Origin: an uncultured delta proteobacterium | Lineage (GTDB): Bacteria; Desulfobacterota; Binatia; Binatales; Binataceae | Assembly: GCA_963832395.1 (NCBI GenBank) | Contig: CAWHTV010000003.1 | Coordinates: forward strand, 199,323-263,322 | Direction: 5' to 3' | DNA: 64,000 bases | In this document: in pieces, positions 4,976 to 57,860 of the stretch | Numbering within the stretch: the first letter of the stretch is position 1 | Layout of the letters: every line of letters begins with the position of its first letter | Notes under the pieces: model-generated | What the model saw: only the letters and a program-made list of their open reading frames with translations | Told to the model about the DNA's origin: nothing | Databases searched by the model: none | Translations under genes and position numbers: made by a program

Positions 4976-4988
4976 GGCATTGCGCTCC

Positions 4989-35037: not shown

Positions 35038-35275
35038 CGTGATCTCCTTTAGCCGGCCCCACTAGAACGGGATGCCTTGGAATATTGCGCAGTGATGGGT
35101 GGTAGCGCCAGACCCGGCGCAAACGATCGTTAGAGTTGGTGGCGTGCCGGCTTAAGCTCGCGCGCGGATTCAATGTGGCGGCGGTGTATGGCTGCAACCG
35201 CCGTCATCCTCTCAAGCAATTGCCTTTTCACTCGGGACCGGGTCCACATGAGGGTGCGGGTGTTCATGCGGTAAT

Positions 35276-36049
35276 TCAAAGTGCGAGCGGCCATTGCCAA
35301 CACGAAAGAGACCAGCCGCGTCCTTCCACCGCGAGAGCGGAAACGTAGCCTGGGTCAACACTCAACTCCTGTAGAGACCAGCGGCGAATTTCGTCTGGAT
35401 CTGCTTGCGTCCTCAGCAGCGCCGCAGGTTCCCCAGGAATCAGCGACACGTCGAACTGCTCCAAGGGCAGCGAGAGTCCTTCACCTCTCGCCTTGATGTA
35501 GGCTTCCTTGCGAGTCCAACAGAGAAAGAACGCGTGCTTCCGCAGGCTGACCGGAAGCCCCCGAAGCGTCGCAATCTCGCGTTGCGAGAAAAATCGCTCC
35601 GCGAGCTGCTCCACTTCCAGGCTCTCGCGGATAAATTCGAGGTCGATACCGATCTCGCGACCACGAGTAACCGCATAAAGAGCGACTCCGTGGGAATGGG
35701 ACATGTTGAAATGGATCGTGTTCCCGCCCGGGTCCTGGGCAAGGGCGGGCTTCCCGTGAGGGCCGTAACAGAACAACACGGATTTCGCTGCTCTGTTCAG
35801 ATAAACGCCAAGGATCTCTCTGAGCGCGCCGCGCGCGACGATAAAGCGCTCTCGATCAATCTGGAAGTAAAATCGCTCAGCTCTCGCTTGTTCATCTTCT
35901 GAAAGAGTGTGGAACAAGCTATTCATGCGTGATGGATTGTGGTCCAGATCCGCTCGCCAGACGTGTACCTCGTCGTTACTTAGTACTAAGCTTCCTCGCG
36001 GAGAAGGCCACGGAGAAACAGCAAGGGTGTTGGTAAGCGCTATCGTCAC
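35276..36049 (-). CDS. 4'-phosphopantetheinyl transferase, Sfp type
   Basis: 257-aa ORF: ...EVHVWRADLD...LSEDEQARAERFYFQIDRERFIVARGALREIL...FNMSHSHGVALYAV...IGIDLEFI...CWTRKEAYIKARGEGL. These are the classic Sfp/Gsp-type PPTase motifs. It is the last gene of the biosynthetic string. Confidence 0.9.
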   Translation of the reverse strand: MTIALTNTLAVSPWPSPRGSLVLSNDEVHVWRADLDHNPSRMNSLFHTLSEDEQARAERFYFQIDRERFIVARGALREILGVYLNRAAKSVLFCYGPHGKPALAQDPGGNTIHFNMSHSHGVALYAVTRGREIGIDLEFIRESLEVEQLAERFFSQREIATLRGLPVSLRKHAFFLCWTRKEAYIKARGEGLSLPLEQFDVSLIPGEPAALLRTQADPDEIRRWSLQELSVDPGYVSALAVEGRGWSLSCWQWPLAL

Positions 36050-36068: not shown

Positions 36069-36830
36069 TCAGTCCAGTTCTTGTGAGATCATCTGAAGAA
36101 GGAGAGGTCGAGCCGTGTTCAGGAACAAATGGTCGCCAGGAAGCATTCGCAACGAGGAGCACGCGGTAGTCTCATCGCGCCAGGCTTCGAGATCGTTGCG
36201 CCTCACTTTGCCATCCTGCAAGCCACCAAAGGTTGAGATGGGGCAGTTCAAAGGAGGCTCAGCCGAGTACTCGTACGTCTCATAGAGGGCGAAATCGGCC
36301 CGCAAGATAGGAAGTACGATCTCCATTAGCTCTTCATGCCCCAACAGCTCCATGGGAATACCGTTGAGGCGACGCACCTCCGCTAAAAATTCCTTTGGCG
36401 GCAAAGTATGGATAGGCGAGTCTCGACGAGGAATCTGAGGCGCACGGCCAGCCGAGATAAACAGGCGAACGGGATTTACACCATACTGTCTGCGGAACTG
36501 GCGCGCGAGCTCGAAGCCAATCAATGCTCCCAAGCTGTGGCCGAAGATAACAAAGGGCTTGTCCAGAAGCGAAGACAGCGCGGGCGCGAGCACTTGGACG
36601 AGCGGCGACATCTCAGTGAAAAGACGCTCCATCAACCTGGTACTCCGTCCGGGAAGTTGAACCGGACAGACCTCGACATCCGCAGGCAAAGCGCTCGACC
36701 ACGTGCGAAATATCGAGGCACTGCCTCCCGCATATGGAAAGCAGAACAAACGCAGACGCGCCTGCGGGCTGGCCTTGCGCCCTGCTATCCAGGAGCTAAC
36801 AGTCGCAGTGTCGGTCGTGGACTGCTTCAT
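36069..36830 (-). CDS. type II (editing) thioesterase
   Basis: 253-aa ORF: RLFCFPYAGGSASIFRTW...PFVIFGHSLGALIGFELAR...MLPGDHLFL. This is the standard TEII pattern (GxSxG = GHSLG, C-terminal GDHFF-like). Confidence 0.9.
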   Translation of the reverse strand: MKQSTTDTATVSSWIAGRKASPQARLRLFCFPYAGGSASIFRTWSSALPADVEVCPVQLPGRSTRLMERLFTEMSPLVQVLAPALSSLLDKPFVIFGHSLGALIGFELARQFRRQYGVNPVRLFISAGRAPQIPRRDSPIHTLPPKEFLAEVRRLNGIPMELLGHEELMEIVLPILRADFALYETYEYSAEPPLNCPISTFGGLQDGKVRRNDLEAWRDETTACSSLRMLPGDHLFLNTARPLLLQMISQELD

Positions 36831-36847
36831 GCGTGAGATCCGTGCGA

Positions 36848-37066
36848 CTATCTTTCCCCCTTCTCCATTTCCTTCCTGAGCGTGAGCGGCCTCATGTCAG
36901 TCCACACTTCTTTGACATAAGCCAGGCATTCCGCCTTCGACCCGCTCTTCCCGCCATCGCTCCACCCAATAGGGTTGCCTCGCTCAGCAGGCCAGATCGA
37001 GTACTGCCCTTCATGATTCACGAGGACCTTGTAGCGCGCATTGCCTTCACTGTCGTCCGTATTCAT
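36848..37066 (-). CDS. MbtH family protein
   Basis: The internal ATG at 37066 gives [63 protein letters not shown], with the invariant N.E.QYS.WP / GW / W.DMRP pattern. Its ATG overlaps the NRPS stop codon (ATGA at 37063-37066). Confidence 0.92.
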
Positions 37067-38112
37067 TGAGCGTCCTTCATCAAGCTGCTTCGTGGATTGA
37101 TTCCGTCGGGCAACCATTCCTCTGCCGACTGTGCGTGGCTGAGGCAGGTCTTCAATTTCTCAGCCAATACTTCAACCTGAGGCCGGTAAACCATGTTAGC
37201 GTGATTGCCCGGGACGGCATGAACTTCCACTCCTCCAGCGGCCCATTTGTCCCACCCAAAGGTCGGGTCGGGAGACGCTCCCGCGGGCTCCTCATTCGCT
37301 CTAAATAGTATGATTCGACCTGGGTAGCGGTGCAGTACGTAGTTACGTGTCGCTCGAAAATCGTTTTTGCAGAGCTCGACAAACCGCTGAGCCTGGGAAA
37401 CCTCGACCTCCGGAGGCACCAAGCCGGCTTTCTTGGCCTGCTCAAGCACACGAGCCAATACTTCGTCCCTTGGAAGTTGCGATATATCCTCAAGGTTCAA
37501 AGAAAGACCGAAATAACGGACCACATCGGTCAACAAGGTCGCCTCAAAATCTTGCTCCACGAACTTCTCTTCAGGAGCCGGGATCCGACTATCCAGTAAG
37601 GCTAGCAAAGCCACTCCATGACCCTGCGCGCGAAGCTGCTGGGCCATCTCGAAGGCTACCGTCCCCCCCATGGACCATCCTCCCAGACGGTACGGACCCT
37701 CAGGCTGCACGGTCCGTAGTACTTCAATGTAGTGAGTAGCCATATCCTCGATACGCATGTACGGATCTTGGCCCTGTTCAAGACCTTTTGCCTGTAGTCC
37801 ATAGCATGGTTGATCGGGGCCCAAATACTGCGCCAGATGAACGTAGGGGAATACCTGGCCGCCAGCCGGATGTATCAGGAAAAGCGGCGGTTTGCTGCCA
37901 TCGGGTTGAATAGCCACCAAGGAGGATACGGGCGCTGGCTCGGCCTGTTGGCGAAGAAGCGTGGCAAGATGTTCAATGGTCGCTCCCTGAAACACGGCCG
38001 CCAACGGAAGTCTTCTACCCAACCTGTTCTCTATCAGGGCGAAAAGACGCACCGCTGCCAGAGAATGTCCTCCAAGCTCAAAAAAATTGTCTCTTACTCC
38101 AATAGATTCCAA
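37063..38112 (-). CDS. NRPS terminal fragment: thiolation (PCP) + thioesterase domains
   Basis: The ORF piece has the T-domain core [16 protein letters not shown] and a TE domain ([22 protein letters not shown], ...VPGNHANM). It continues in another frame from the upstream A-domain piece. Confidence 0.9.
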
Positions 38113-39897
38113 GACCCAGAACCTCCCTCCACAGATGAGTGAGCTGGAGTTCCAAAGCGTCTCGGGGCGCCACCAGCACTTTTTCCAACTCAGGCCTCGT
38201 TCGACCAGCCGCTGGCAGCGCGCGGCGATCCACCTTCCCGTTGAGCATCAGCGGCAGCGCGTCCAACAGCACGTACGCCGAAGGAACCATATACTCCGGC
38301 AGCTTCTGTTTCAGAAAGCCGCGCAGGTCATTAGCCGTGGGAAGGAGGTCCCGCTCGGCGACCACGTAAGCCACCAGCCGCTTTTCTCCAGGAGCGTCTT
38401 CCTGAGCCAGAACGACAGCGTCCCGAACGCCTGGGTGCTGGCCAAGCGTTGCCTCGATTTCCCCGAGCTCGATACGGAATCCGCGGATCTTGACTTGGTG
38501 GTCAACCCGGCCCAGAAATTCGATGTTCCCGTCAGGTAGATAACGAGCCAAGTCGCCGGTCTTGTACAGTCGTGCTCCCGGCTCGATGCTGAAGGGGTTT
38601 GGAATAAACTTCTCAGCGGTCAAATCGGGGCGATTCAGATAGCCCCGGGCCAGACACGCTCCGCCGATGTGCAGTTCACCGGGAACTCCAACAGGAACAG
38701 GGTTGCCGTACTTGGTCGAGAATGTATGTCTCTCTGTTGGCGAGGGGCCGGCCAATAGGAATTCTCTGAAAAGTCGCTCTCTCGAAGAGTCGAGGATCAA
38801 TTTCGAAGGCAGTTGCCGTTATAGTGGCCTCCGTCGGGCCATAGGCATTGAGTAGACGGATTGAATTCGCCGGTGTTCGCTGCCAGAGTTTGAGAACGTC
38901 GGGCAACAGGATGTCTCCGCCAACGGTAAACAGTCTGGCCTGAATGTTCGACGCCAGCTCGGGAAACTCCGCCCACTCTCGAGCCAGCTCTTGCCAGTAA
39001 CCGGTTGGAAGATTGAGTACCGTCAGTCCAAATTCCGAGATCTTTCTATGAAATTCCGCCGTATGCCATACGTCCGTGCCCATCATAACCAGCCGGGCTC
39101 CAACGATCAGAGTAGGCAGGATTTGCTCCAATGATAGATCGAAACTCAATGAAGCAAACTGGAGCACCCGATCACTCGGATCCAATTCGTAGTACCTTTG
39201 AATATCTCGGCAGTGAGCCGCAAGCGACGCGTGCGAAACGAGAACACCCTTTGGCTGTCCCGTGGATCCCGAGGTATAGATTACGTAAGCCAGATTTTCA
39301 GGTCTGGTTGAACTAATCGGGTTGCGCTCGCTTTCTCGGTCAATCGCCTCCCGCTCTGAATCCAGACAGACTATTGTCGCATCACATTCCGGCAGCGCCG
39401 CGAGCAAACGCTCCCGCGTCAATATCACCGGCGCTCGGGCCGTTTCCAGCATGAAAGCGAGGCGCTCTTTCGGATACGCTGGGTCCAGGGGCAGATACAC
39501 TCCGCCTGCCTTCAAAATGCCCAGCAACCCGACAATCATATCCGCCGAGGGCTCCAGGCAGATTCCGACCGGTATCTCCGGGCCCACTCCCAAAGCCTGC
39601 AAATGATGCGCAATTCGATTGGAGCGGCGGTTCAGTTCCGCATATGTCAATTGCTCATGCTTCAAAGACGACCGCTATAGCGTCAGGCGTTCGTTCGACC
39701 TGCGCCTCGAAAAGCTGCTGAATACACAGATCCTTCGGATAATCGATCTTGGTGTCGTTCCACTCGACAAGCAGTTGTTGTCGCTCTGCTTCGCTCAGGA
39801 TGGGCAGTTCCGACAGCCGCTCCTCAGGATTAGCGACCACAGCCTCAAGCAAGGTTCCGAAATGCCCGAGCATACGAGTCAATCGTGGCATCCTCAA
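38078..39897 (-). pseudogene. NRPS adenylation domain of the last module (in at least 3 frame pieces)
   Basis: The pieces are 39655-39897 (C-A linker, LFEAQVERTPDAIAVVFE), 38676-39665 (LTYAELNRRSN, YTSGSTGQPKGV, FDLSLEQ, NAYGPTE) and 38078-38800 ([49 protein letters not shown]). All core motifs A1-A10 are present. Confidence 0.88.
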
Positions 39898-41301
39898 ACA
39901 GGTCCTTGTTGTAGGCGAAGGTTGCGAGTCAGTCCTTGCTCGGTATCCGCGATATGCAGAGTCAAATCAAAGTGGGCGGTCCCGCTGTCGATCTCCACCG
40001 GACTTAGAGTCAAGCCTGGCAGCCCGATCGTTTGCAGCGACGCATTCTGCAACACGAACATCACCTGAAATAGCGGATTGCGTCCCAGATTCCGCTCCAG
40101 ATGTAATTCCTCCACCAGTCTCTCAAAAGGCAGGTCCTGATGCGCATACGCTCCCAGGCACACTTCCCGCACGCGCCGCGAAAGCTCCCGGAAAGTAGGA
40201 TTACCTGAAAGGTCAGTGCGCATAACCAGCGTGTTAACGAAGAATCCAATCAGTCCCTCGATCTCCAGCCGGTTGCGATTAGCAATCGGAGTGCCGACGA
40301 TGAGGTCGTCTTGATCCGTGTAGCGATGCAACAATATCTTGAACGCCGCCAGCAATGTCATGAACAGAGTAATCCCCTCCTGCCGGCTCAAGCGCCCTTA
40401 AACCTTCGCCGACCTTCCTCGGCAACAGCAACGATTGGATGTGAGCCCCGAAAAGTCTGCACGGCCGGCCTGGGATGGTCCGTCGGCAACTCCAACGGAG
40501 AGGCGCCGAGTAATTGCCGCTTCCAATAGGTAAGCTGGGTCTCCAGGACTTCACCCTGCAGCCACTGCCGCTGCCAATGCGCAAAGTCCGCATATTGGAT
40601 AGGCAGGTCAGGCAGCGGCGAGGATCTTCCGCCGGAGAAGGCTTCGTAGAGTACGGCCATCTCCCGGATCAGTATTCCGGTCGACCAGCCATCGGAAACG
40701 ATATGATGCATCGTCAGCAGCCCTACATGCTCCTCCTCTGCCCAGCCGCAAGCAGAGTGACCCGCAAAAGCGGGCCCCGGGCCAAGTTGAACGGCCTTTG
40801 GGCCTCCTCAATAGCCAGCCGTCGGACCTCGGCCTCCCGTCTCGCTTTCAGGCAGTTCCTGCAGATTCACTATCGGCGGTCTGACGGTCAGCGTTGGCGC
40901 GATAATTTGAGCCGGCCGCCCGTCCACTATCGTAAAGGTCGTCCGCAGGGATTCATGGCGCTTGACGATTTCGTTGATACTCTGTTCCAGCGCCGCCACG
41001 TTGAGCGGGCCCTTCAGGCGGACCGCGGCGGGAAAATTATAGGCGGAGTTGCCCGGCTCCAACTGATCGATGAACCATAGCCGCTGCTGGGCAAAGGAAA
41101 GGGGCAAATCTCCGTCTCGTGGAATAGGCAATATGGGCGGAGCCTGCAGCCTCTGCCCGGTCTCGCCGGGCTGCCTCGATACTTTCAGCCAGGCCCGCCA
41201 CGGTAGGCATCTCAAACAGACGCCGCAGCGGTATCTCCACCGCAAAGGCCTCGCGCATTCGAGACACAGCCTGAGTCGCCAGCAGCGAGTGTCCACCTAA
41301 C

Positions 41302-43054
<1,753 letters not shown>

Positions 43055-43059
43055 TCTCC

Positions 43060-44340
43060 AGCAACGTCTGAAACTGTGCGGCCAGGCGCTCGATATCTTC
43101 CATGTGGAACACGTTGCAGTCGTAATGAAGCTCGATGCTCAGCAGGTCCGCTTTTGAACACAGGACAACTTCAACGTGAACCGTTCGGTACAAGCGTGTC
43201 GCCTCTGAATCGCAAATGTCACATCGCCCGCGGAATACCGCACGGGCTGTTCGTCACAATTCGAAAATAACCGGGAAGAAGGGCGCACCGTCGCCAGTGG
43301 CATTCGAGCCGGCAACTGAATCCCAACTGAAAGTACTCCTGCCAATCGAGCGATTCCCGCGATCGACTCATTGACCTGCTTTAAAAGCTCACTGAAGTGA
43401 AGCTGTTCTTCCAGATGACACTGAAGCGGCACGGATTGCGCCAACAGTCCGGGTGTCTCTCTTAAGCTCATCGTACGTACGGCCATCGCCACAGATCGCG
43501 ACGAGGAAGTGCGATTGACTGGTGAGACGCCAGAGCAAATTTGCCAGCACGTCAACAAGATATACAGAAATTGACGTATCGTAGTTTCGAACCGCCGCTT
43601 TGAGTGCCATCGTCAGGTCGGTCTCGAGCTCAAACCTGAAAAATCGCGGATCGAACCCCGGCGTTGTCGGAACGGTGATTCTCAAAAGGGGAGAGTCAGA
43701 CGCGGGTACCGCCGAAAGATTTTGCTTGCCGCCAATAGTCTCTTCCTGCACTTTGTATCCTCCGACTCCAATAGTTCATTATCCATTGCGCGACATCGGC
43801 GTACTGCAGCGACGGAGCCGCTAGTGTTTCACCAACCAGGCAGGCTGAATAGCAACGGCTTAATTCGCGGACAAAAATCGTAAGGGTCGCCGTATCCGCA
43901 TAAAGAGCGCGATAGGGTAACAAACAACATGTGCTTGTCTGCCGACAGAGCGGCCAGCGACACATGCGCGGGCGGGCTCTTGTCCCGGTCAAAAGGCGCT
44001 TCGCTGGCAGCTTGCAAAAGCGATTCGAGTGCGGCCGTCGTTCGCGAGAGCTCCAGCCTACGCAGGTCGTGGCTGCTCGATGATGCGTCCGCTTCCGACG
44101 GTATCATCGCTTTCGGCATACAACCTGAACCGGGTGGTCGTTCCGGGCAGGCAAGCAATCGTGGTGCGAAAAATCTCATGTCGGGCGAAGACGCCTCGCA
44201 AAGCGGCTTCGAGCAGCTTATGTCAACAGGTCCTTCGATAAGAACCGCGCATTGAGCAAGATAAGGTGCGGCGTGGTCCGTCTGCTGCACCGACCACAGA
44301 TGCAATTGCTGAGGTGAAAGTCGAAACCCCTCAGATCATC
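43060..44340 (-). pseudogene. second, divergent condensation-family domain lacking the HHxxxDG histidines (many frame pieces)
   Basis: It begins FRLSPQQLHLWSVQQTDHAAPYLAQCAVLIEGPVD, then LEAALRGVFARHEIFRTT (alternate frame), ...APFDRDKSPPAHVSLAALSADKHMLFVTL, then (P)IALYADTATLTIFVRELSRCY at the place of the HHxxxDG motif (43894-43920). It continues SLQYADVAQW...YW, FELETDLTMALKAAVRNYDTSISVYLVDVLANLLWRLT, ...DGRTYDEL. The C-domain fold order is preserved. Confidence 0.7.
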
Positions 44341-44559
44341 GGGCTCGGGAGTTCGCACTTATCAATTGCCTGCTCAGTGTTTGAGCCGAGAAGAGGCTCC
44401 GTTGAAATGAGATGGGGCCGATCGCCCGGTGGACTGGGCATTCCATACCCGTCGCGCCATCACTACCCAGTTTGGATACGCTAATCGCCACCCGTCTCGC
44501 GAGTCTTCAGTCTTTGGAGGTTGGTCTCTCTATACTGTTGCCGGACGCCACCGTCGTTG

Positions 44560-45678
44560 CCTATCTATCCCGGCAAGTATGTCCCTTAGTGCATTCAACC
44601 TGGCATCGGGTTGTGTAGTGATATGGTGCAGAAGCGTTTCGAAGTGTCTTGCGATTCGCGCGATGGTAGCGGCATCGAACAGATCGCTGTTGTAGCGCAT
44701 GGAAATAGAAAGCGAGCGGGCCGTCTCAATATCAACATCACCAGATCGAGAGTGGCCGCCCGATGTTCCAAGGGCAAAGCTTCCAGCTCGAGTCCTCCTG
44801 GATTCATACGCAGTCCGCGCTCGCCCAGCGCGAACGCGGTGCTCCCTGTTCAGCTAGCTGATGCGGTTTATCCAGCACGAACATGACCTGGCACAGTGGC
44901 GGTCGGCTGAGATCCCGGGCCGGATGGAGTCGTTCGACCAGCAGTAGAGTTGGGTAGTCCTGATGCTCGAGCGCGGCCAGCACGGTTTGGCGCACCTGGC
45001 CTAGAAACGCCTCGAAGGCCGGGTTTCCGGAACAATCCGCTCTCAAGATGACGGGATTGGTGAAGAGGCCGACGACGCCTTCGAACTCGGCCCGACTCCG
45101 GCCGAGCACGGGAGAGCCCACCAGGATGATCCTCCTGACCAGTGTGGTGATGCAGTATCACTTGAAATGCGGCCAGGAGAACCATGTACAAGGTCGCGCC
45201 CTGGACCTTCGCGAGAGCTTTCAGCCGCAAGCTCAGTTCATCGTTCAAATTGAAATCGTACGAGGCGCCGCGATATGTCGGCACCGGCGGTCGCGGCCGA
45301 TCGGTCGGAAGCTCCAGCAAAGGCAAGTGTCCAGCCAATTGCTTCTGCCAGTAGGCCCAAAGCCGATCACCTTCGGGGCCCGCCAGCATTTCGGCCTGCC
45401 ATCGAACATAGTCGGTGTATTGCGAACCGAGCGCGGGCAGCAGCGCGGGTACGCCGGCCTTTTCCGCCGGATATAGCGCGCCGAGTTCACGTGAGAAGCA
45501 GCGCGAGGGACCAGAAATCGATCACGATATGATGTACTACCAGCAGCAGAACGTGTTCCTTTGCCGAGCAGGTGAACAGGTTCACCCGCAGTACAGGCCC
45601 TCGTTCCAAATCAAAGGGCCGATAGGCTTCCTCGAGCAGCCGGGTTTTCAGAATCTCGCTCGTCCCAGCCCGACGCAT
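44560..45678 (-). pseudogene. condensation domain following the PKS ACP (core and C-terminal half; at least 5 frame pieces)
   Basis: RPFDLERGPVLRVNLFTCSAKEHVLLLVVHHIVIDFWSL carries the catalytic motif at about 45508-45534. It is followed by YWQKQLAGHLPLLELPTDRPRP...YRGASYDF, LKALAKVQGATLYMVLLAAFQVILHHHTGQED, GSPVLGRSRAEFEGVVGLFTNPVILRAD, and ...ARIARHFETLLHHITTQPDARLNAL. Confidence 0.8.
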
Positions 45679-45684
45679 CGGTCT

Positions 45685-46368
45685 CTACGAAGTGGACGGC
45701 CGTAACTGCTGATGGACCCGTTGAGCGGGCTTGCCGGAGCGCACGGAAAAAGTGGTCCGCAGTGCAGGATGGCGATCGACCAGCGCCTGAAACGCGCGCC
45801 GCAAGGCCGGAATATCCACGTCGGAGCGGATGCGCGCGGCGAAGTTGACATTGTAGACCATGCTCTCCGGGGCGAGCTGGTACAGAAACCATATCCCTTG
45901 CTGATTGTAAGACAGCGGCTGAAACGATTGAGACGTCGGCGTCTTCTGACGCCTCTTTCCGAAGGAGCTGTGGCAAGCAGAGCGCGCTTTTCTCCTGGCG
46001 AAAGATCGGCGATTCTTTGGGAGGCGCTGCATCAGGATTCCACTAATTTCCGCTTTGTCCAACATATCGGCGAGCAGTGAATCCACTTCCTCATCCGAAA
46101 GCCGATCGAGTTTTGCCAACAGCTCTCCATTCGCCGCGCCGTTGCTGTACTCCTGCTGGCGTTGCGCGACCGTCGGGGCAGGTGGCGCCGATGACGCGGA
46201 AAGCTCCGCGGTCAATTGATCAAGGATCTGCGTGGCAGCCTGGGCAACGCTCGGTCCCTGGAGAAATTTGACCATCGGCACGTTCACGCCCAAGTCAACC
46301 GCGATCCGGTTCTTCAGCTCGACCGCCATCAGGGAATCCAGTCCGAGATTGCTGAGCGGCTGCTCCAC
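45685..46368 (-). CDS. PKS acyl carrier domain + N-terminal start of the condensation domain (ORF fragment)
   Basis: The ACP core is LSNLGLDSLMAVELKNRI. A long Ala/Pro/Gln linker follows, then the C-domain start QPLSYNQQGIWFLYQLAPESMVYNVNFAARIRSDVDIPALRRAFQALVDRHPALRTTF. Confidence 0.85.
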   Translation of the reverse strand: MEQPLSNLGLDSLMAVELKNRIAVDLGVNVPMVKFLQGPSVAQAATQILDQLTAELSASSAPPAPTVAQRQQEYSNGAANGELLAKLDRLSDEEVDSLLADMLDKAEISGILMQRLPKNRRSFARRKARSACHSSFGKRRQKTPTSQSFQPLSYNQQGIWFLYQLAPESMVYNVNFAARIRSDVDIPALRRAFQALVDRHPALRTTFSVRSGKPAQRVHQQLRPSTS

Positions 46369-46415
46369 GTCCAGCCTGGAAGCGGAAAGTCCGAGTACGC
46401 GGGCTACTTGTTCGC

Positions 46416-47546
46416 TCAGGTAGGAACGCAGCAGTTGAGAGCGCGCCGCGGGTTCCGCGGCAAAAGAGTTTCCCTCTTCTCTCCCGCATGGGCCGCCTGC
46501 GGTTGGACCTCGACCTCCTCATTAGCAAGTTGAGAGAGCAACGGCGATTCACTACCCACTGAGTAAAACTGGCGATACTGCCTCCAGTCGACGGGCACCG
46601 CCGCGACCTGGGCTGCGTCCTGCCGGAGCATCCGTTCCAGCACTTCCAGCGCCTGCCTGGGCGCCATACTCCTGATTCCCACTAGCGCGAGATGTGCTGC
46701 GAGACGCTTGCCCCCGGCCGTTTGCGCAAAGCCCAACTCGGCCCAGGCACCCCAGTTGACGCTCAGGGCCGGCCGGCCTTGGGCTTTTCGGTGATGCGCC
46801 AGGGCATCGAGGAAGGCATTGGCGGCGGCATAGTTTGCCTGGCCGGGCTGGCCCAGGAGCGAGCCCGCGGAAGAAAAGAGTACGAAGAAATCCAGCGGAG
46901 CGTGTTCGAGCAAGCGATGCAACAGCCAACCACCCATCACCTTGGGCCGCAATACGGTATTCAGCGCGGCCTGATCAAGCTGCGAGAGCAGTCCGTCCCG
47001 CAGTACTCCGGCCGCGTGCACTACGCCACGGATCGGCGGCCAACCCTCGGCGCTAAACTCTTCGAGAAAGGCGCTCAACTGTGCTTCATCTGCCACGTCC
47101 ACCGAGGCCAGATGCACGCTCGCGCCCAAGGCTTCCAGCTCTCGAATGGCACCGACTTGATGGGCCAAGCGGCTTCCCGCCTCTGCCGCGCTCCAACCCG
47201 ATCGCGGCGGGAGCTTCGTGCGTCCCAAAAGGATCAACCGCCGAGCGCCCTGCTCGACCATCCAACGGGCGACCGCGAGACCGAGGTCCCCGAGTCCTCC
47301 AGTAATCAGATAACTGCCGTCCGTCGGCCACGCGAGCGGAGGGCGTTGCGCCACGGACTGGCGTTTGCGTACCAGGCGCCCCACGTATCGCCGCCCCTGA
47401 CGAAACGCGATCTGATCCTCTCCATCGGGGTTGGAGATTTCCTCCCACAACCGACTAGCAACGGCGTCAGGCGGCGAGGCCCCGGGCTCCAGGTCGATCA
47501 GGCCTCCCCACGATGCGGCGTGCTCCTGCGCAATAACGCGACCCAT
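46416..47546 (-). CDS. PKS ketoreductase domain (ORF fragment)
   Basis: The Rossmann motif is YLITGGLGDLGLAVARWMVEQGARRLILLGR. The fragment also has SVDVAD...VVHAAGVLRDGLL (LxD of B-type KRs) and FFVLFSSAGSLLGQPGQANYAAANAFLDALA (catalytic S/Y/N region). Confidence 0.88.
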   Translation of the reverse strand: MGRVIAQEHAASWGGLIDLEPGASPPDAVASRLWEEISNPDGEDQIAFRQGRRYVGRLVRKRQSVAQRPPLAWPTDGSYLITGGLGDLGLAVARWMVEQGARRLILLGRTKLPPRSGWSAAEAGSRLAHQVGAIRELEALGASVHLASVDVADEAQLSAFLEEFSAEGWPPIRGVVHAAGVLRDGLLSQLDQAALNTVLRPKVMGGWLLHRLLEHAPLDFFVLFSSAGSLLGQPGQANYAAANAFLDALAHHRKAQGRPALSVNWGAWAELGFAQTAGGKRLAAHLALVGIRSMAPRQALEVLERMLRQDAAQVAAVPVDWRQYRQFYSVGSESPLLSQLANEEVEVQPQAAHAGEKRETLLPRNPRRALNCCVPT

Positions 47547-47639
47547 CCCCCAAAGAGGCGCCTGCGCTACATCAAGAGGTAGAGGGCTCTTCGCCCGCCG
47601 CCTGAGCCCCTCGGGTTACCAGCCATAGGCGCGGGAGCA

Positions 47640-48501
47640 TCACGCAGGTCGGCGTCGCGAGCCAGATCCTGTCGAGTCAGTTCCTGTCGGGCCAGTTCCT
47701 GAACCAACGGCAGCACGGCGCCGCAGCCCAGACTCTGGGCCTTCGATAGCGAAGCCGCGGTGGGTATCCCGCGGCGTAGAAGGATCAAGACAATCGAGAC
47801 TCCAGAGATGGACAATCCGCCGGCAGGCCGCCCGATTGGCCGGCATCGCCGCCTCGAAAAGCAGTCGGAGGTCTTCCGGCCTTTCTGGACGAATACGAAA
47901 ATGCCTACTGTCCGCGACCTCGTACGATTCGCCCCGAGCGACAAGGATGCTTTCCGCGCCTTGCGCTTCCAACAGTGCCGCCAGCGCTTCTCCTACGCCG
48001 CCGCGGTCGGCAAAGATAAGCCAGCTCTCTCTATCGGCTCGCGCGGAATGCTCCGCGGCTACTGGTTCATCAGCGCGTGGTTTGAGCTGCCACTGAAACT
48101 CATATAGCCAGTCGTTTATATTTTCTTTCCGTATATTTCCTTCCCGACTCGTTTCGACCGCGCGGTGCGCATGGCTGCCCAGGGATTCGAAGCGCAGTCC
48201 CGACAATCTCGACTACCGCTTGCCCGGCTTCATCCAGCAGCCGTACATCTCCTTTGACCGCATTGGCGTCTCGCTCTTGCAGATGGGCGTAACTCCATAG
48301 ATGCGGTTCCGGACAGCCGTGGACCCGGACCTCATCTATGTGCGTCGGCATGAAGATGTTCTGTTTGCCGTTTCCCGTTACCTCAGTCGCGACAGCGGCT
48401 CCAGCAACCTGCAGGCAGGCATCCAGGACCGCTGGATGAATCTGATAGGTACTGCATTCACCTTCAGGACATTGAGGAACACCGTATTTCACCGAGCACA
48501 T
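47640..48501 (-). pseudogene. PKS dehydratase C-terminal half + structural (pseudo-KR) linker, two ORF pieces
   Basis: 48100-48501 reads ...YQIHPAVLDACLQVAG... (the DH DxxxQ motif), then ...DVRLLDEAGQAVVEIVG. 47640-48206 reads WLYEFQWQLKPR...SWLIFADRGGVGEALAALLEAQGAESILV...RIVHLWSLD (KR structural subdomain). Confidence 0.8.
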
Positions 48502-51500
48502 CTCCGTCGTGCCACCACAACTGAGTAATGCTCTGGAGGAAGGAGCCGTAATGGATACCGTTTTCGCTCAGTCTCGCGTAATAGTCCTGTCCAGAGATCT
48601 TTTCCAGACATCGAGCCTGGATCTCCGCGAGCGTCTCCTGCCCTGCCGCAAAGACGCTGCCGTCTTCTTGGGAAGAAACTCCGCCCGTCGCATGCAGCGT
48701 CCATGATTTAGCGGGTTGGCCGATTCCCGCAGGGCAACTGTAGATTTGAAAAGCCGCCGCTCCATCCGTTCCGGAAGAGAGGATCAACTGAAGCAGGCGG
48801 GTTTCGTCGTCGGGCAAGAAAAGCGCCCGGTGAAATTCGATATCCTTCAGCACGAAGGATTGTGCCAGTGCGAAGGATTGTGCGCCGAAGGCCTCCGCCG
48901 CGGCCGCCAAGGCCATCTCCACGTAGGCCGAGGCGGGCAGCACCGCAACTCCTTCAATACGATGGTCATTCAGATAACGGCAGCGCGCGCTTGTCGAGCG
49001 TGACTTCCCAGAAGATGGGTTTCCGCAGGATGTGCCGATTTGAAATGCCGGCCCAGCAGCGGATGGTGCTCTTTCGTGCTGCGCGCTTTCCCCGAGCGCA
49101 TCCCCGCGCGTATCCGATAGATAGTCGGTTTCATCTGCCGCACTGTCCATCCAGCAGCGCTCTCGCCGCCAGGGATGCGACGGAAGCCGGACGCAGCGGC
49201 CTCCGGCCGGGTAAACAAGACTCCAGTCCACTGGGTATCCCAGGGTATAAAGCGCGCCGAGGGATCCAAGCATCACCGTGCGTTCTTCTTCATCACGCCG
49301 CATCGACGCCACCACCGCGCCTTCATGGCCGAGGTGATGAAGTCCCTGCTGGATGCCACTTAGAAGAATGGGATGCGGACTGATTTCAAGAAAAATGTCA
49401 TGTCCATCTTCCAGCAAGCGTTGAACCGCCGGTGAAAACAGCACCGGCTCTCTGAGGTTTCTCGCCCAATAGCGCGCTTCGAACTCGAGCCCACCGCTGA
49501 CCATACCGGTCACGGTCGAGTAAATGGGTATCGATGCGGGTCGCGGCTCCAGACCTTCCAGGGCCTGCAACAAATCCGCGCGTAGGGGATCCATCTGCGG
49601 GCTGTGCGAAGCGAAATCCACTTTCACCATGCCGCAGAAGATGTCTCGACGCCGCAATTGATCGAGGATTGTTTCCAGCGCCGCCGGATCTCCCGACAAC
49701 ACGGTGGAGGTGGGACTGTTGCTGGCCGCGATCGATACGCGATCTTCGTAGCCGGAGCCGGCGAGAACGCCGCGCGCCTGTTCCATGGAAAGCTCGACCG
49801 CGGCCATCGCGCCCTGTCCGACTGCGCGCCTGACCAGGCGGCTGCGATGACAAATAACCCGCGCCGCATCTTCGAGGCTCAGCGCACCGGCGACGTGCGC
49901 CGCCGCGACTTCGCCCATGCTGTGGCCGACCACGGCCTGTGGCTCGATACCCCAGGAACGCCACAAGGCCGCCAGGGCGACCTGAATCGCAAACAGGGCC
50001 GGCTGAACGATATCGACTTCGTTCAGCCGGGACTGAGCCGCATCGGTTGCCGTGAGCTCGCCGAGCAAAGACCAATCTCCGTACCGCCGCATCGCCCGGT
50101 CACAGCGTTCCACGACCTCGCGAAAAACCGGTTCCTGCTCCAGGAGGCTTCGCCCCATGCCAAACCATTGGGATCCTTGTCCCGGAAACACGAACACAAG
50201 TTTTCTTTGACGACCTGAATCCTTGCGGCCGAAAGACAGTCCGGGACGGGCCTCTCCGTGCAAAAACGCCTGGAGCCCTTCACTCAGTTGCTCGCGTGAA
50301 TAGCCTGTCACGGCGAGACGGTAGTCGTGATGATCACGCCGCATACCGGCCGTGTAACAAATGTCGTTTAGCGACAGTTCGGATTCCGGGGACGCCAGGA
50401 AATCCTGGTACGCTCGAGCAAGAGACTGGAGTGCCTCGGGGCTGCGCGCCGAAAGTGGCAGCAAGTGCGCGGACTTGGTATTGCGAATTTCGGCATGTGG
50501 ACTATCTATTGCGCATTCCGCACTCTGGATCCATGAATTGGACTGGGGGGCCTCTTCGAGAACCACATGAGCATTGGTTCCGCCAAAACCGAATGAGCTC
50601 ACCCCGGCCAGAGCGGGGCCCGACTCGACCGGCCATGGACCGAGCGTCGTCTGCACCCGCAGCGGGAGCCGATCGAAAGGAATGTGCGGATTGGGCTCCA
50701 CGAAGTGCAGGTTCGGCGGGATCTCGCGATGCTTGAGCGCGAGCGCCACCTTGATCAAGCCTGCAATGCCGGCTGCGGCCTCGAGATGGCCGATATTGGT
50801 CTTGACCGCGCCCAGGGCGCACGGTCTTCCCGGGGGACGGTCGAGGCCAAGCACCGCGCCCAGCGCCTTCACCTCGATCGGGTCGCCGAGCAAGGTGCCA
50901 GTGCCATGGGCTTCGACATATTGAACCCCGCCGGGCGAAACTCCAGCGCGCCGATAGGCTTCTCGCAGAACGGCTTCCTGGGCCAGCGGATTGGGAGCCA
51001 TCAGGCCGTTGCTGCGTCCGTCCTGATTCACCGCGCTGCCTCGCACGACGGCGTAAATCGGATCGGCGTCGGCCAAGGCTCTGGATAGCGGTTTCAGCAC
51101 GACGACACCGGCGCCTTCGCTGCGAACGTAGCCGTTGGCTCGGGCATCGAAGGCCTTGCAGCGGCCGTCGGGAGCCATGACCCCGGCCTTGGTAAAATTG
51201 ATGGTAATCGCGGGCGACAGGATCAGATTCACGCCGCCGGCAAGAGCGAGACTGGACTCTCCGTTCCAAAGACTGCGGCAGGCCAGATGAACCGCGACGA
51301 GTGACGAGGAACAGGCGGTGTCGATAGCCATGCTCGGCCCGCGAAAATCAAACAGGTAGGAAATACGATTGGCCGCGATACTCAGTGCGTTGCCGGTGCC
51401 CGCGTAGGCATCGATACGATGCGGATCGCCGAACTGAATCCGGCCATAGTCATTGTTCGAGATGCCGATGAATACACCGGCCCGGGTGCCGGCCAGACGC

Positions 51501-52240
51501 TCCGCCACCTGTCCAGCGTCTTGCAATGCTTCCCACGCCACCTCCAGCAACAGACGTTGCTGAGGATCCATACGCGCCGCTTCACGAGGAGAGATGCCGA
51601 AAAAATGAGGATCGAACCGATCGATCTGCTTGAGGAAGCCGCCCCAGCGGGTGTTCGTCTTGCCCGGAGCCGCGGGGTCCGGATCGTAAAAAGCGTCAAG
51701 CTTGAAGCGCTCCGCCGGAACCTCTGTGATCGCGTCCACTCCGTCCCGCAGCAGTTGCCAGAACGCTTGTGGATCATTGGCTCCGGGAAACCGGCAGCCG
51801 AGGCCGATGATCGCGATCGGCTCGCTGGTTGCTTCCCGCCCGCGGTCAGCCACGGCGCCCGACTGCGTGCCGCCGGAGTCCGAGGCATCCGCTGACCCCG
51901 CCAAATAACGGGCGAGCGTCTCGATGGTGGGGTACTCATAGGGGAGCGCGGGAGAAATTTGTCGCCCAAGCCGATCCGCCAGTTCGCCGGAAAGACCGAC
52001 CATCTCGCTTGAGCCGAGGCCATAACTGGCGAAGGGCTCGCGGACATCGATCTCGCGAGGCTCAAGCCCCAGCAACTCGGACAGCCGGGAGACCAACCAG
52101 GTTTGGATGACTTCAGCGGTCAGAGAATCCGTTGATGAGTTTGGCTGGTCGCGTTTGTCTCGATCGTCGAAACTCCGTTCGACAGAGCCTCGTTCGACAG
52201 AACTTGGCGACGCGCCGTTGGTTGAATTCTCCGACATCAC
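48464..52240 (-). CDS. type I polyketide synthase: N-terminal carrier domain-KS-AT-DH (N-half); longest open piece of the megasynthase
   Basis: 1258-aa ORF. The carrier domain is FASYGLGSSEMVGL. The KS motifs are IDTACSSSLVAVHLA, YVEAHGTGTLLGDP and KTNIGHLEAAAGIAG. The AT motifs are VVGHSMGEVAAAHVAG and VKVDFASHSPQM. The DH motif is YLNDHRIEGVAVLPAS (HxxxGxxxxP). Around 48990-49080 the expected HPLLG segment is only readable in an alternate frame (HHPLLGRHFKSAHPAETH), so even this ORF hides a compensated double shift. Confidence 0.92.
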   Translation of the reverse strand: MMSENSTNGASPSSVERGSVERSFDDRDKRDQPNSSTDSLTAEVIQTWLVSRLSELLGLEPREIDVREPFASYGLGSSEMVGLSGELADRLGRQISPALPYEYPTIETLARYLAGSADASDSGGTQSGAVADRGREATSEPIAIIGLGCRFPGANDPQAFWQLLRDGVDAITEVPAERFKLDAFYDPDPAAPGKTNTRWGGFLKQIDRFDPHFFGISPREAARMDPQQRLLLEVAWEALQDAGQVAERLAGTRAGVFIGISNNDYGRIQFGDPHRIDAYAGTGNALSIAANRISYLFDFRGPSMAIDTACSSSLVAVHLACRSLWNGESSLALAGGVNLILSPAITINFTKAGVMAPDGRCKAFDARANGYVRSEGAGVVVLKPLSRALADADPIYAVVRGSAVNQDGRSNGLMAPNPLAQEAVLREAYRRAGVSPGGVQYVEAHGTGTLLGDPIEVKALGAVLGLDRPPGRPCALGAVKTNIGHLEAAAGIAGLIKVALALKHREIPPNLHFVEPNPHIPFDRLPLRVQTTLGPWPVESGPALAGVSSFGFGGTNAHVVLEEAPQSNSWIQSAECAIDSPHAEIRNTKSAHLLPLSARSPEALQSLARAYQDFLASPESELSLNDICYTAGMRRDHHDYRLAVTGYSREQLSEGLQAFLHGEARPGLSFGRKDSGRQRKLVFVFPGQGSQWFGMGRSLLEQEPVFREVVERCDRAMRRYGDWSLLGELTATDAAQSRLNEVDIVQPALFAIQVALAALWRSWGIEPQAVVGHSMGEVAAAHVAGALSLEDAARVICHRSRLVRRAVGQGAMAAVELSMEQARGVLAGSGYEDRVSIAASNSPTSTVLSGDPAALETILDQLRRRDIFCGMVKVDFASHSPQMDPLRADLLQALEGLEPRPASIPIYSTVTGMVSGGLEFEARYWARNLREPVLFSPAVQRLLEDGHDIFLEISPHPILLSGIQQGLHHLGHEGAVVASMRRDEEERTVMLGSLGALYTLGYPVDWSLVYPAGGRCVRLPSHPWRRERCWMDSAADETDYLSDTRGDALGESAQHERAPSAAGPAFQIGTSCGNPSSGKSRSTSARCRYLNDHRIEGVAVLPASAYVEMALAAAAEAFGAQSFALAQSFVLKDIEFHRALFLPDDETRLLQLILSSGTDGAAAFQIYSCPAGIGQPAKSWTLHATGGVSSQEDGSVFAAGQETLAEIQARCLEKISGQDYYARLSENGIHYGSFLQSITQLWWHDGDVLGEIRCSSMS

Positions 52241-52247: not shown

Positions 52248-54038
52248 TTACAGACTGGCGAGAGTGCCGTTCAGGAAGCTGACCTGGCACGCATTGCGCT
52301 GAACCTTGCCGCTTGGAGTCTTCGGCAGGCTCCCGGCCCTGAGCAGTACCGCCGCGTGCACCCGCACGTCGTGCTCTTCCGCCACCGCTCGCCGAATGGC
52401 TCGTACCATCGCCCCGACGTCCAGCAACAGCCGCGGAGGCGAGTGCGGGGGCCGATTGCGATCGTGGCTATCCGCCGGCCGGTAGCGGCGCTCAACCTCG
52501 GCTGCGACGATCAAACGTTCTTCGTGGGCGACGTCGACCGAAAACGCCGCGCAACAGCCCGACCGTATTGCGGGATGGCTTTGTTCCACCGTCAACTCGA
52601 TGTCGTTGGGGTAAAGGTTGCGGCCCCCGATGATGATCAGATCTTTCAGCCGGCCGGTGACAAACAATTCGCCATCTTTCAGAAATCCCAAATCTCCGGT
52701 GCGCAGAAATGGCCCTTCTCCGCTGTCCGCGAGGTAGGCTCGCAACGTGCGCTCTGTCTCCTCGGGGCGGTTCCAATAACCTCGCGAAACGGTCGGGCCT
52801 GATACCCAGATTTCGCCCACCGCCTCCGGTGCGCAACGAGTCAACGATTCGGGATGAACGATGACAATCCTGGTACCGGGCATCGCGTGGCCACATCCAA
52901 CCAGGGTCCGCACATTCTGTTGCTGGTCGGGAGCCTCCGCGACGCGATTCTGTTCAAGCGCCGCCGCCTGAGCCGCATACAAGGTAGGCTCATCTTTCAA
53001 AGGACCGCCTGACACCATGAGAGTGGCTTCGGCGAGTCCATAGCAGGGATACAGGAAGCGTGGGCGGAACCCGTATTTTGCAAAGGCCGCGGCAAACCGT
53101 TTCAGAGTGTCCGCCCGGACTGGCTCTGCGCCATTGTACGCCGCATACCAACCGCTGAGGTCGAGATTTTCGCACTGTTCGGGAGTAATTTTGCGGGCGC
53201 ACAGCTCGTAGGCGAAATTGGGACCTCCACTGACGGTGCCGTTGTATCGCGAAATTGCCTGAAGCCAACGCACCGGCCGCTGAAGGAAGGATTGTGGCGG
53301 CAAGATGAAACATGGACGTCCAACATAGGTCGGTTGAACGATTCCATTAGTAAGTCCCATATCATGAAAGACCGGCAGCCATGACACTGATACCCCACTG
53401 TCCGGAGTGAGCTCGAACGCGTGATTGACGTTGGCCGAATTATGCAGAAGGTTCCCGTGACTGACCATCACACCCCGGGGTACGGTGGTTGAGCCTGAGG
53501 TGTATTGGAGCAAGGCCAGACTGTTGCTGGTCACGACAGGATTTTGCCATCCCGGCGCCAGCCCGCCGGTGAGCTTGTCGGTGGCCACCCAGCGCATCGT
53601 CGCCAGTTCTTGAGCCTGCGTGAACAGGGCCTCAACCTTCGACAGGATCGATGACGTGGTGAGCGCCACCGACGGCTGAGCATCGTTCGCGATGGCTCGT
53701 AACCTGGGGAAAGTCCGCTGTTGCTGAGCCGCAGTCGGCGGGGGCACCGGGACGGCAATCACGCCGGCATACAGGCAACCGAAAAAGGCCGCGATGAATT
53801 CGAGACCGGTTGGATAGATCAGCAGCGCCCGCTGCCCACTTGCGCAGTAAGTCTGGAGCAGCGCCGCAATAGTCCGGGCCTCGCGGTCCAACTCCGCATA
53901 GGTCAGACGGCCTCCCTCTACCTCTCCATCGAGCAAATAGGCGTAGGCCAGCTGCTCAGGCTGACGAAGCGCTCGCCAGCGAAGGACCTCAACCAGCGTG
54001 GAAAAACTAACCGTTTCATCGGTAGAAGCTCTATTCAT
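52248..54038 (-). CDS. fatty acyl-AMP ligase (FAAL)
   Basis: 596-aa intact ORF with the typical FAAL N-terminus (TLVEVLRWRALRQPEQLAYAYLLDGEVEGGRLTYAELDREARTIAALL). Adenylate-forming motifs are LQYTSGSTTVPRGVMVSH, YGLAE, GEIWVSGPTVSRGYW, RTGDLGF and PKTPSGKVQR. Its stop is 7 nt before the PKS carrier-domain start. Confidence 0.9.
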   Translation of the reverse strand: MNRASTDETVSFSTLVEVLRWRALRQPEQLAYAYLLDGEVEGGRLTYAELDREARTIAALLQTYCASGQRALLIYPTGLEFIAAFFGCLYAGVIAVPVPPPTAAQQQRTFPRLRAIANDAQPSVALTTSSILSKVEALFTQAQELATMRWVATDKLTGGLAPGWQNPVVTSNSLALLQYTSGSTTVPRGVMVSHGNLLHNSANVNHAFELTPDSGVSVSWLPVFHDMGLTNGIVQPTYVGRPCFILPPQSFLQRPVRWLQAISRYNGTVSGGPNFAYELCARKITPEQCENLDLSGWYAAYNGAEPVRADTLKRFAAAFAKYGFRPRFLYPCYGLAEATLMVSGGPLKDEPTLYAAQAAALEQNRVAEAPDQQQNVRTLVGCGHAMPGTRIVIVHPESLTRCAPEAVGEIWVSGPTVSRGYWNRPEETERTLRAYLADSGEGPFLRTGDLGFLKDGELFVTGRLKDLIIIGGRNLYPNDIELTVEQSHPAIRSGCCAAFSVDVAHEERLIVAAEVERRYRPADSHDRNRPPHSPPRLLLDVGAMVRAIRRAVAEEHDVRVHAAVLLRAGSLPKTPSGKVQRNACQVSFLNGTLASL

Positions 54039-55791: not shown

Positions 55792-55793
55792 TG

Positions 55794-57059: not shown

Positions 57060-57817
57060 CGTTTCAGATTGGGCAGGGAAAACGTCTCCGCGCTGATCGG
57101 CACGTCGAATGCGACATCCTCGTACACGATGGTAGTTTGCTGACCAGGCTTGTCCACGGATCGCATGACCAGGCGTGTAGGCATGAGCCTTCCGCCCGTA
57201 GTTTTGTAATCGGAAAAGGTCAGGTCCCGGACCAGCTTGCCGTCTTCGTCATAGAAACCCTGCCATGCCGGCATCAGGTTGGCTTGACGAACCTGCAACA
57301 CGATTTTGCCCCACACCACCACCGCGCCGGGCTTGGGTGTCAGAGTATATTCATACACCGCAACCTCGCCCCGCTTGCCCTCAAAAGAATTCGCCAGAGA
57401 ATAGTCGCGCACCAGGCCGCTTTCTTTCACCAGATCATCGAGGGTGAAATCACTTCCCATCCACGAGGTCATCGTCATCGAAGAAGGGGCCTTGATCGTG
57501 CGGTTCGCTTTCGGCAGATAGTACCAGATGTCGTTGCCTATTTTCAGGATGGCCGTGCCCGCGTCCTTTTCGGGGCTGATGATACGCACAAGAGCGTTCT
57601 CTCCCTGCGTCCAGATCTTCATCGTGAGATCGCGTTGCCCATTTTCTCCGGCGATCTGCATTTGCAGCGTAGCGATGCTGGATTTGCCGCTGAAAAGCCG
57701 AGCCACCCGATCCACGATCTCACGCGCGCGTTGATCGTCCGTGGCGTGAGAGATCCGGCCGAGACTCAGTAGAAGCAGTCCGGCCAGCACAGCCATAGTT
57801 GTTTTGTGCCATCGCAT
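57056..57817 (-). CDS. LolA-like outer-membrane lipoprotein-sorting family protein (periplasmic)
   Basis: 253-aa ORF with a signal peptide (MAVLAGLLLLSLGRISHA). It reads ...IATLQMQIAGENGQRDLTMKIWTQGENALVRIISPEKDAGTAILKIGNDIWYYLPKANRTIK...SWMGSDFTLDDL..., typical of the LolA-like family that accompanies FtsX permease pairs. Its stop overlaps the permease start. Confidence 0.8.
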   Translation of the reverse strand: MRWHKTTMAVLAGLLLLSLGRISHATDDQRAREIVDRVARLFSGKSSIATLQMQIAGENGQRDLTMKIWTQGENALVRIISPEKDAGTAILKIGNDIWYYLPKANRTIKAPSSMTMTSWMGSDFTLDDLVKESGLVRDYSLANSFEGKRGEVAVYEYTLTPKPGAVVVWGKIVLQVRQANLMPAWQGFYDEDGKLVRDLTFSDYKTTGGRLMPTRLVMRSVDKPGQQTTIVYEDVAFDVPISAETFSLPNLKR

Positions 57818-57860
57818 AACAGACCCACTCGCGCATACGTAAAAGAAACAGTGGCAACGA

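Follow-up and report, generated by a model that had tools for sequence, protein, structure and literature searches.

A histidine-less interface-type condensation domain in a putative split lipopeptide assembly line of uncultured Binatia

Introduction

For the non-ribosomal peptide synthetases (NRPSs) of β-hydroxy-aspartate siderophores a non-catalytic "interface" domain was reportedly described by Reitz and co-workers in 2019. Within the condensation (C) domain superfamily the interface (I) subtype is by now recognised (PMC10212144; PMC12230676), and antiSMASH 8 detects it (PMC12230676). In cyanochelin B biosynthesis the protein BAU16061 is CcsL, an Asp-specific module that comes after the self-standing β-hydroxylase CcsK, for which Reitz et al. 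2019 is cited (PMC12628792). Thus far the domain type is known, as is the split that leaves a C domain on one protein and the I, adenylation (A) and thiolation (T) domains on the next. Here, we describe a related domain from 64,000 nucleotides of contig CAWHTV010000003.1 (positions 199,323 to 263,322, assembly GCA_963832395.1) of an uncultured delta proteobacterium of the Binataceae; this whole stretch is called the window below and positions are counted within it. Three proteins are encoded side by side on its minus strand, namely a polyketide synthase (PKS), a free-standing condensation protein (solo C) and an NRPS headed by a condensation-fold domain without the catalytic histidines. This N-terminal, histidine-less domain is designated ψC throughout. 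We consider it likely that these proteins share a split module of a lipopeptide assembly line that combines a fatty acyl-AMP ligase (FAAL), a PKS and an NRPS, that ψC acts in it as a scaffold and that the many insertions and deletions (indels) of the region are errors of sequencing or assembly.

To date, interface domains have been linked with the Asp β-hydroxylases of siderophore pathways, and the variant described here would separate a scaffold role from the recruitment of a hydroxylase. In a limited literature sample no description of a hydroxylase-free, non-Asp, PKS-linked variant was found, and a literature search on NRPS clusters of Binatia yielded nothing relevant.

The histidine-less domain and its relatives

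Between about 37 and 48.5 kb the minus strand carries NRPS/PKS coding sequence that is chopped into short open reading frames (ORFs), adjoining an intact ORF of 1258 aa (48464-52240). A sequence-only reading of this region had reported two full condensation folds that follow each other without an intervening A or T domain, the second lacking the histidines of HHxxxDG while keeping the aspartate. The peptides it quoted were all found on the minus strand, at or a few bases from the positions it gave, and both observations hold. For frame correction, single-base indels of the window were removed against the orthologous locus L006, which is 86-89% identical in nucleotides over window positions 54403-32878. 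Three further fetched loci can be aligned lengthwise to the window, L009 (83% identity), L007 (76-78%) and L012 (73-75%); all four are metagenome-assembled genomes (MAGs) labelled "uncultured delta proteobacterium", and their close listed relatives are labelled Binatia or Binataceae.

ψC (42952..44339, minus strand) starts at the ATG at 44339 with MIEGFRLSPQQLHLW, continues with FRLSPQQLHLW (44326-44294) and is followed by a recognisable A-domain peptide at 42860-42810; its corrected translation is 77% identical to that of L006. At the active-site position (43927-43882) the uncorrected letters give LFVTLS and, beyond a frame break, ALYADTATL (43908-43882). A 1-nt insertion at about 43910 breaks the frame right on the motif. 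The caution that had been attached to manual frame stitching at this point was justified; the frame breaks are most likely sequence errors. The corrected stretch is HMLFVTLSALYADTATL, that is LSALYAD instead of the LP(I)ALYAD read before, and L006 has LSAFCADRATL.

The stitched translation of this second domain served as query in the search for homologues, which returned sequences of 61-63% identity and many more of 35-45%, mostly cyanobacterial, all of them starting within a few residues of M..EGFRLSPQQxxLW. Thirty homologues show L(P/S)A(L/F)CAD variants at the position of HHxxxDG and none of them has the two histidines. Within the family the motif is mostly L(P/S)ALCAD; its aspartate is invariant, and the preceding position is commonly Cys; the window has Tyr there, and other members have N, L, Q or S. 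A scan of GTDB species representatives detected the domain in at least 567 loci; 80 of these were fetched, and all counts of genomic context given below refer to 83 loci examined. Homologues with an LPxLxAD-type motif, for which the sequence-only reading had suggested looking, do exist; the gene before them encodes in nearly every locus a protein ending in a catalytic C domain, and often a TauD-family gene is inserted between the two.

The fold of ψC is that of a complete condensation domain. In a comparison with PDB sequences the closest homologue of ψC aligns over residues 7-436 to the C domain of TycC (E 1e-34), and Pfam recognises two Condensation stretches in the NRPS of L006, one of which is ψC. 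The AlphaFold2 model (pLDDT 85, pTM 0.88) was compared by Foldseek; TM scores were 0.72-0.84 against canonical C domains and 0.78 against the X domain of teicoplanin. Pfam and NCBIfam offer generic C or NRPS models and no model specific for ψC, and both groups of ψC sequences match only generic NRPS models of NCBIfam, below cut-off. No solved structure of an I domain was recognised; the PDB entry 8z0q, a "special condensation domain", was considered as such and rejected since it is HtmB2-CT.

In all 83 loci the domain is N-terminal, with at most 58 in-frame codons upstream. The protein encoded before it ends in nearly every locus in a canonical HHxxxD-containing C domain, 3-60 nt before the stop, and is often a free-standing C protein of 515-550 aa. 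Directly upstream of the ψC gene 50 of the 83 loci have a TauD-family gene, ending about 26-330 bp before ψC, and in a few loci TauD is fused to the upstream C. The A domain that follows ψC in the TauD-adjacent loci examined has the signature DLTKIGHVGK, which is an Asp code. Plasmid 2 of Leptolyngbya sp. NIES-3755 shows the arrangement well, with the order NRPS BAU16063, TauD BAU16062 and BAU16061. Here BAU16063 ends with HHLILDGWS ... LSLQRLKLTKRRKQH, and BAU16061 begins with a domain (IEGYRLSPQQKHLW ... LNLPSLCAD) that shares 39% identity with the corrected ψC of the window (E 2e-102). In a neighbour-joining tree, calculated without support values and hence indicative in topology only, the ψC sequences all fall into a single clade, well removed from canonical C domains; in it the loci of Binatia type (group B), to which the window belongs, lie among TauD-associated sequences, and a TauD-bearing Binatia locus, L008, lies inside this group. 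By its homology to CcsL and the clade that both share, ψC is assigned to the interface-domain clade. It has the C fold, the missing histidines, the position at the start of an NRPS before an A domain and the relation to CcsL that mark an I domain; what it lacks of this definition is a partner β-hydroxylase of TauD type (Fe(II)/2-oxoglutarate-dependent), be it stand-alone beside it or fused to the upstream C, and, judged by the signature, an A domain that selects Asp (or some other residue that is hydroxylated).

The ratio of nonsynonymous to synonymous substitutions (dN/dS) of ψC between the window and L006 is 0.277, compared with 0.24-0.27 in the comparison pairs (L009, L007 or L001, each versus L006) and 0.11-0.18 for catalytic domains. 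Judged by these ratios, ψC is held under purifying selection in the Binatia-type clade. As a starter C domain, i.e. one for lipoinitiation, ψC was rejected, as it has no histidines and a separate catalytic C is encoded directly upstream.

The free-standing condensation protein and the gene boundaries

The first of the two domains (46039-44374) is a canonical catalytic C domain with full-length fold and HHxxxD. Its gene (44374..46039, minus strand) encodes solo C of about 549 aa, the corrected translation of which is 87% identical to its L006 counterpart and free of internal stops. The C1 motif PLSYNQQGIWFLYQL lies at 45918-45874 and HHIVIDFWS at 45534-45508; an orthologue matches Pfam Condensation with E 9e-101 over profile positions 2-444 of 456, and 16 solo C orthologues have HHI(V/A/I)IDF as active site. 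With a dN/dS of 0.137 between window and L006 (comparison pairs 0.11-0.17) the protein falls in the range of the other catalytic domains.

Both ends of solo C are distinctive. An N-terminal docking helix, SQRIADLSPGEKRALLA, is encoded at 46022-45972 and a conserved basic C-terminal tail, RQQYRETNLQRLKTARRV, at about 44560-44377. In 24 solo C proteins the helix MSxxSQRIAxLSPxEKRALL is combined with the tail LQ(R/K)LKxx(K/R)R, and we regard the tail, by its conservation, as a candidate docking peptide. It is also observed before interface domains both with a hydroxylase (including that of cyanochelin B) and without one, and in locus L086 it lies at 2680-2775.

At its upstream border, the PKS stop overlaps the ATG of solo C (GAATGAGC, ATGA overlap) in L006, L001, L012 and L009. 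The first C domain had been taken as continuous with the acyl carrier protein (ACP) domain of the PKS, which is corrected by these orthologues, where it is a separate gene. After the C-terminal ACP of the PKS (LMAVELKNRIAVDLG, 46332-46288) the window encodes a docking helix, LSDEEVDSLLADMLDKAEIS. The junction with solo C (45940-46040, minus strand) contains indels of +5, +1 and +10 nt that push the PKS stop out of frame, so that ACP and C domain come to lie in one frame and mimic an ACP-C fusion. The N-terminal helix of solo C is still encoded there, though split over two other frames.

At the downstream border, window and L006 have in common the TGA stop of the solo C gene (44376-44374) and, 34 nt past it, the ATG of the NRPS gene at 44339; the spacer (44340..44373) is also delimited by DNA alignment with L006, L001 and L012. 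As stop, spacer and start codon are shared, the stretch 44340-44560, formerly described as an unstructured linker with stop codons, is in fact the tail of solo C, a real stop, an intergenic spacer and a start codon. It was correctly noted that no A or T domain lies there: 220 nt are too short for a hidden A-T pair and the intact orthologues have none at this place. The genuine stop/start pair that had been proposed as a check is thereby found. Of the three explanations offered at that time, a protein boundary was right in so far as the boundaries are real, but there are two of them (between PKS and free-standing C and between the latter and the NRPS), no terminal C sits on the PKS and the second domain is not of starter type but falls in the interface clade. 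The third explanation, that decay removed an A-T pair, is refuted, because at least 16 intact orthologous clusters carry the identical order of a C protein followed by ψC-A, and selection is not relaxed. A non-catalytic scaffold is the best-supported functional reading, considering that both histidines are absent throughout the family, that a catalytic C is always encoded just upstream and that ψC is under purifying selection.

Loci without a hydroxylase

Together with the window, 20 fetched loci have the order FAAL, PKS, solo C, ψC-A-T-C-A-T-thioesterase (TE) and type II thioesterase (TEII). They come from MAGs that are labelled "uncultured delta proteobacterium", Deltaproteobacteria, Binataceae, Candidatus Binatus soli, Terriglobales or Candidatus Acidiferrales. 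A profile hidden Markov model (HMM) built from eight I-associated TauD proteins had no match across the 64 kb of the window, nor in 22 loci of this kind, whereas the positive control L008 was found with 3e-193. A tblastn search of the window with a cyanobacterial TauD and a CmlA-like hydroxylase matched only with the C-domain part of a CmlA-C fusion. Oxygenase-like genes occur in the window only more than 15 kb away, amid unrelated metabolic genes. The gene of metallo-beta-lactamase (MBL) fold beside the cluster was examined as a candidate CmlA-type hydroxylase and dismissed, being similar to zinc hydrolases and lacking conservation across the other group B loci.

The unusual signature of the first A domain (A1; residues 472-975 of the L006 NRPS), read by alignment to Asp modules, is D-A-R-H-M-G-V-I-D-K in most group B loci, and a second type (about DMKNLGIANK) is found in L012 and L042. 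The former is loosely like a Glu code, with Arg239 and His278, and the substrates of these modules may be acidic. The likewise unusual A1 type of L012, L042 and the TauD-bearing L008 is close to an Orn code but has Lys at position 239. In 20 or more species-level genomes, from Binatia and Acidobacteriota of soil, ψC is retained under purifying selection without a hydroxylase and with a different A domain, which suggests a structural or docking role that is independent of a hydroxylase.

A different situation is met in L005, where a CmlA-like diiron hydroxylase (CmlA_N plus metallo-beta-lactamase fold) is fused to a C domain (2510-5548). This fusion is encoded two genes upstream of the ψC-A gene in a cluster without TauD nearby, and may mean that a different class of hydroxylase is used there with interface-type domains.

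Proposed function and alternative explanations

In the assembly line that we propose, FAAL would load a fatty acid onto the PKS, which would add one reduced C2 unit. The docking helix of the PKS would then pair with the N-terminal helix of solo C, and the latter would bind the NRPS via its basic tail and ψC. In this complex solo C would transfer the ACP-bound acyl chain to the amino acid on the first T domain (T1), i.e. perform an N-acylation. Without chemistry of its own, ψC would substitute for the missing cis-acting C domain as structural partner of A1 and serve as landing platform for solo C acting in trans; in TauD-bearing relatives the same platform would also position the hydroxylase. 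The second C domain (C2) would add another residue and TE would release an N-acyl dipeptide, for export by a MacB/LolA-type system. Such an exported N-acyl dipeptide is probably the product of this widespread cluster.

One alternative is that the whole cluster is a true pseudogene in the window, with real frameshifts and with the solo C and ψC region as its most decayed part. Compared with L006 the window shows 89 indels, and about 75 frameshifts; about 48 indels lie in 42-46.6 kb, where no ORF exceeds about 170 aa. Moreover, nonsense codons do occur in L001, the closest relative from an Illumina metagenome (83% nucleotide identity), namely a change from TGG to TAG at the Trp of HHIVIDFW in solo C (861-863) and an in-frame stop in A1 where L006 has Trp after LVNAVN (3934-3936), the A1 change being found in two samples as it is present also in L002. 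The cluster of the L001 population may be genuinely inactivated. The pattern in the window itself is another one. Read in the L006 frame, the 5014 codons of PKS, solo C and NRPS are free of internal stops, and domain by domain the dN/dS values are in line with the comparison pairs (for A1 0.123, compared with 0.175-0.18). Within this one operon the density of indels whose length is not a multiple of three ranges from none at 50-53 kb to a peak of 15 per kb at 43-45 kb. Real decay is deletion-biased, but here 1-nt insertions prevail. They lie mostly outside homopolymers, for which reason homopolymer-associated error was discarded as their cause. Frameshifts are also seen outside the PKS and NRPS genes, in the MacB/FtsX permease gene (54494-57059, minus strand), the MBL-fold gene (34130-35037, minus strand) and an M24 peptidase gene (32897-34061, plus strand), and these unrelated neighbours fit a window-wide indel error with a local peak at 43-45 kb. 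Because nonsense codons and relaxed selection are lacking and the density is very uneven, the indels are probably technical; as judged from these sequence patterns the frame breaks are most likely errors of sequencing or assembly, or at most a very recent inactivation. We therefore regard a true pseudogene as unlikely, and even if it were one, the identity of both domains would be unchanged.

Somewhat less probable still is that ψC continues to serve as interface for a trans-acting tailoring enzyme, from another hydroxylase family or encoded elsewhere in the genome, and that a modified, e.g. β-hydroxylated, amino acid is made. The adjacent TauD gene in 50 of 83 family members speaks for such a role, as does L008 with its TauD gene and non-Asp A domain in the same subclade, and A1 has in Arg239 and His278 two residues that could accommodate an acidic side chain, in the manner of hydroxylated Asp modules. 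Against it stand the TauD profile without match in window and group B loci, the search with the CmlA-like query that revealed no hydroxylase in the window, the remote and metabolically unrelated oxygenase-like genes, and the zinc hydrolase-like nature and missing conservation of the adjoining MBL-fold gene. Very improbable in our view is a catalytic ψC with a non-canonical mechanism, be it a starter-type acyl transfer or a modification that uses Asp or Cys. The invariant motif aspartate, the common cysteine and the complete, confidently predicted fold might be quoted in its favour, but both histidines are missing from all members, the cysteine is replaced by tyrosine in the window and by several other residues elsewhere, and the dN/dS of ψC is about twice that of the catalytic domains. 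Furthermore, because a canonical C is encoded directly upstream, a second condensation catalyst would have no substrate to join.

Some points nevertheless weigh against the split module with ψC as scaffold. We infer the docking role from gene order, conserved termini and the missing histidines, and we assign ψC to the I family by its homology to CcsL and its genomic context. The invariant aspartate leaves a non-canonical activity of ψC formally possible, a tailoring enzyme encoded elsewhere in the genome is possible as well, and the window copy may have suffered a very recent real inactivation, given that the related L001 carries nonsense codons.

A wider generalisation can be put forward tentatively, with more doubt than confidence: the core job of I-type domains would not be to present the substrate to a hydroxylase but that of an acceptor-side scaffold for a C domain, free-standing or at the end of the upstream protein, working in trans on a split module, the recruitment of a hydroxylase would be an add-on, the Binatia-type clusters would be the natural hydroxylase-free case, and solo C, tail and I domain would make up a portable PKS-NRPS docking system. 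When such sequences are annotated, a C domain that lacks the histidines and directly follows another C domain should be read as a split module with an interface-type domain and not as decay or a missing A-T pair. If true, the proposed arrangement would also offer a natural docking pair for the engineering of split PKS-NRPS modules.

Organisation of the cluster and neighbouring genes

All genes of the cluster are located on the minus strand, and Pfam domain calls were made on the L006 orthologue proteins. The FAAL gene (52248..54038) is intact in a single frame with 93% amino acid identity to its L006 counterpart, on which AMP-binding and AMP-dom_DIP2-like are recognised. It is followed by the PKS gene (46031..52240), colinear with the 2046-aa PKS of L006 and with the domain order ACP, ketosynthase (KS), acyltransferase (AT), dehydratase (DH), ketoreductase (KR) and ACP; its first 1245 codons are intact in the window and the remainder is interrupted by a few indels. 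Beyond solo C and ψC, the remainder of the NRPS gene (37063..42951) is colinear with the 2419-aa NRPS of L006, for which Pfam gives two Condensation, two AMP-binding, two PP-binding and one Thioesterase domain, i.e. ψC-A-T-C-A-T-TE. In the window it consists of A1 (42920-41397), T1 (41364-41183), the catalytic C2 (41113-39768), A2 (39708-38233), T2 and TE (37887-37066). The TEII gene (36069..36929; 79% amino acid identity to L006, Pfam Thioesterase) is conserved behind the NRPS gene throughout the group B loci, and a gene for a phosphopantetheinyl transferase (35249..36049; 78% identity, Pfam ACPS) is found next to it. In L006 and L012 the genes are intact and encode FAAL of 609 aa, PKS of 2046 aa, solo C of 549 and 524 aa, NRPS of 2419 and 2428 aa, TEII and the phosphopantetheinyl transferase.

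Upstream of the cluster, probable export genes (54494..58844, minus strand) were detected by Pfam, comprising the frameshifted MacB/FtsX-type permease, a LolA-like protein and one bearing an LPG_synthase_TM-like domain. The same three types of genes stand directly after the TEII gene in L007 (18366-21343). These neighbours accompany the cluster in both loci, which suggests export of a lipidic product to the envelope. About 10 kb past the end of the cluster a Mutator-family transposase gene (22344-23624, minus strand) is located in a stretch of low GC content (0.52 at 24-26 kb). A megablast search of plasmids with the region gave no match.

Comparison with known systems

The closest described relative of ψC is the I domain of CcsL. 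Both have the C fold without the HHxxxDG histidines and with an L(P/S)ALCAD-type motif, both are the first domain of their NRPS directly before an A domain, both are preceded by a protein that ends in a catalytic C with the tail LQ(R/K)LKxx(K/R)R, and both belong to the same clade. In contrast with the I-domain siderophore systems, the window has no TauD-type hydroxylase in its 64 kb, its A signature D-A-R-H-M-G-V-I-D-K is not the Asp code, and the genes, found in Binatia-like soil bacteria, make up a compact lipopeptide cluster of FAAL-PKS-NRPS type that is accompanied by MacB/LolA-type export genes and has no siderophore uptake genes.

The X domain of glycopeptide synthetases (teicoplanin Tcp12; PDB 4tx2, 4tx3) is a structural neighbour of ψC (TM ~0.78) and may be likened to it as a C fold without condensation activity that recruits trans-acting enzymes. 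However, X is found at the C-terminal end of the last module before TE and recruits P450s, and with ~22% identity it is no closer to ψC than ordinary C domains are, so that this is an analogy and not a family membership. As an X domain proper ψC was rejected owing to its N-terminal position, a likeness restricted to the fold and the lack of any P450 among the genes scanned around the cluster.

Solo C, finally, resembles free-standing condensation enzymes that act in trans, such as VibH and SgcC5 (PDB 4znm), in that it is a separate protein with HHxxxD intact and must reach the carrier domains of other proteins. VibH is an enzyme that accepts a soluble amine, unlike solo C. Also in contrast with such enzymes, solo C has dedicated docking segments at its N- and C-terminus and always pairs with an I-type domain on the acceptor protein.

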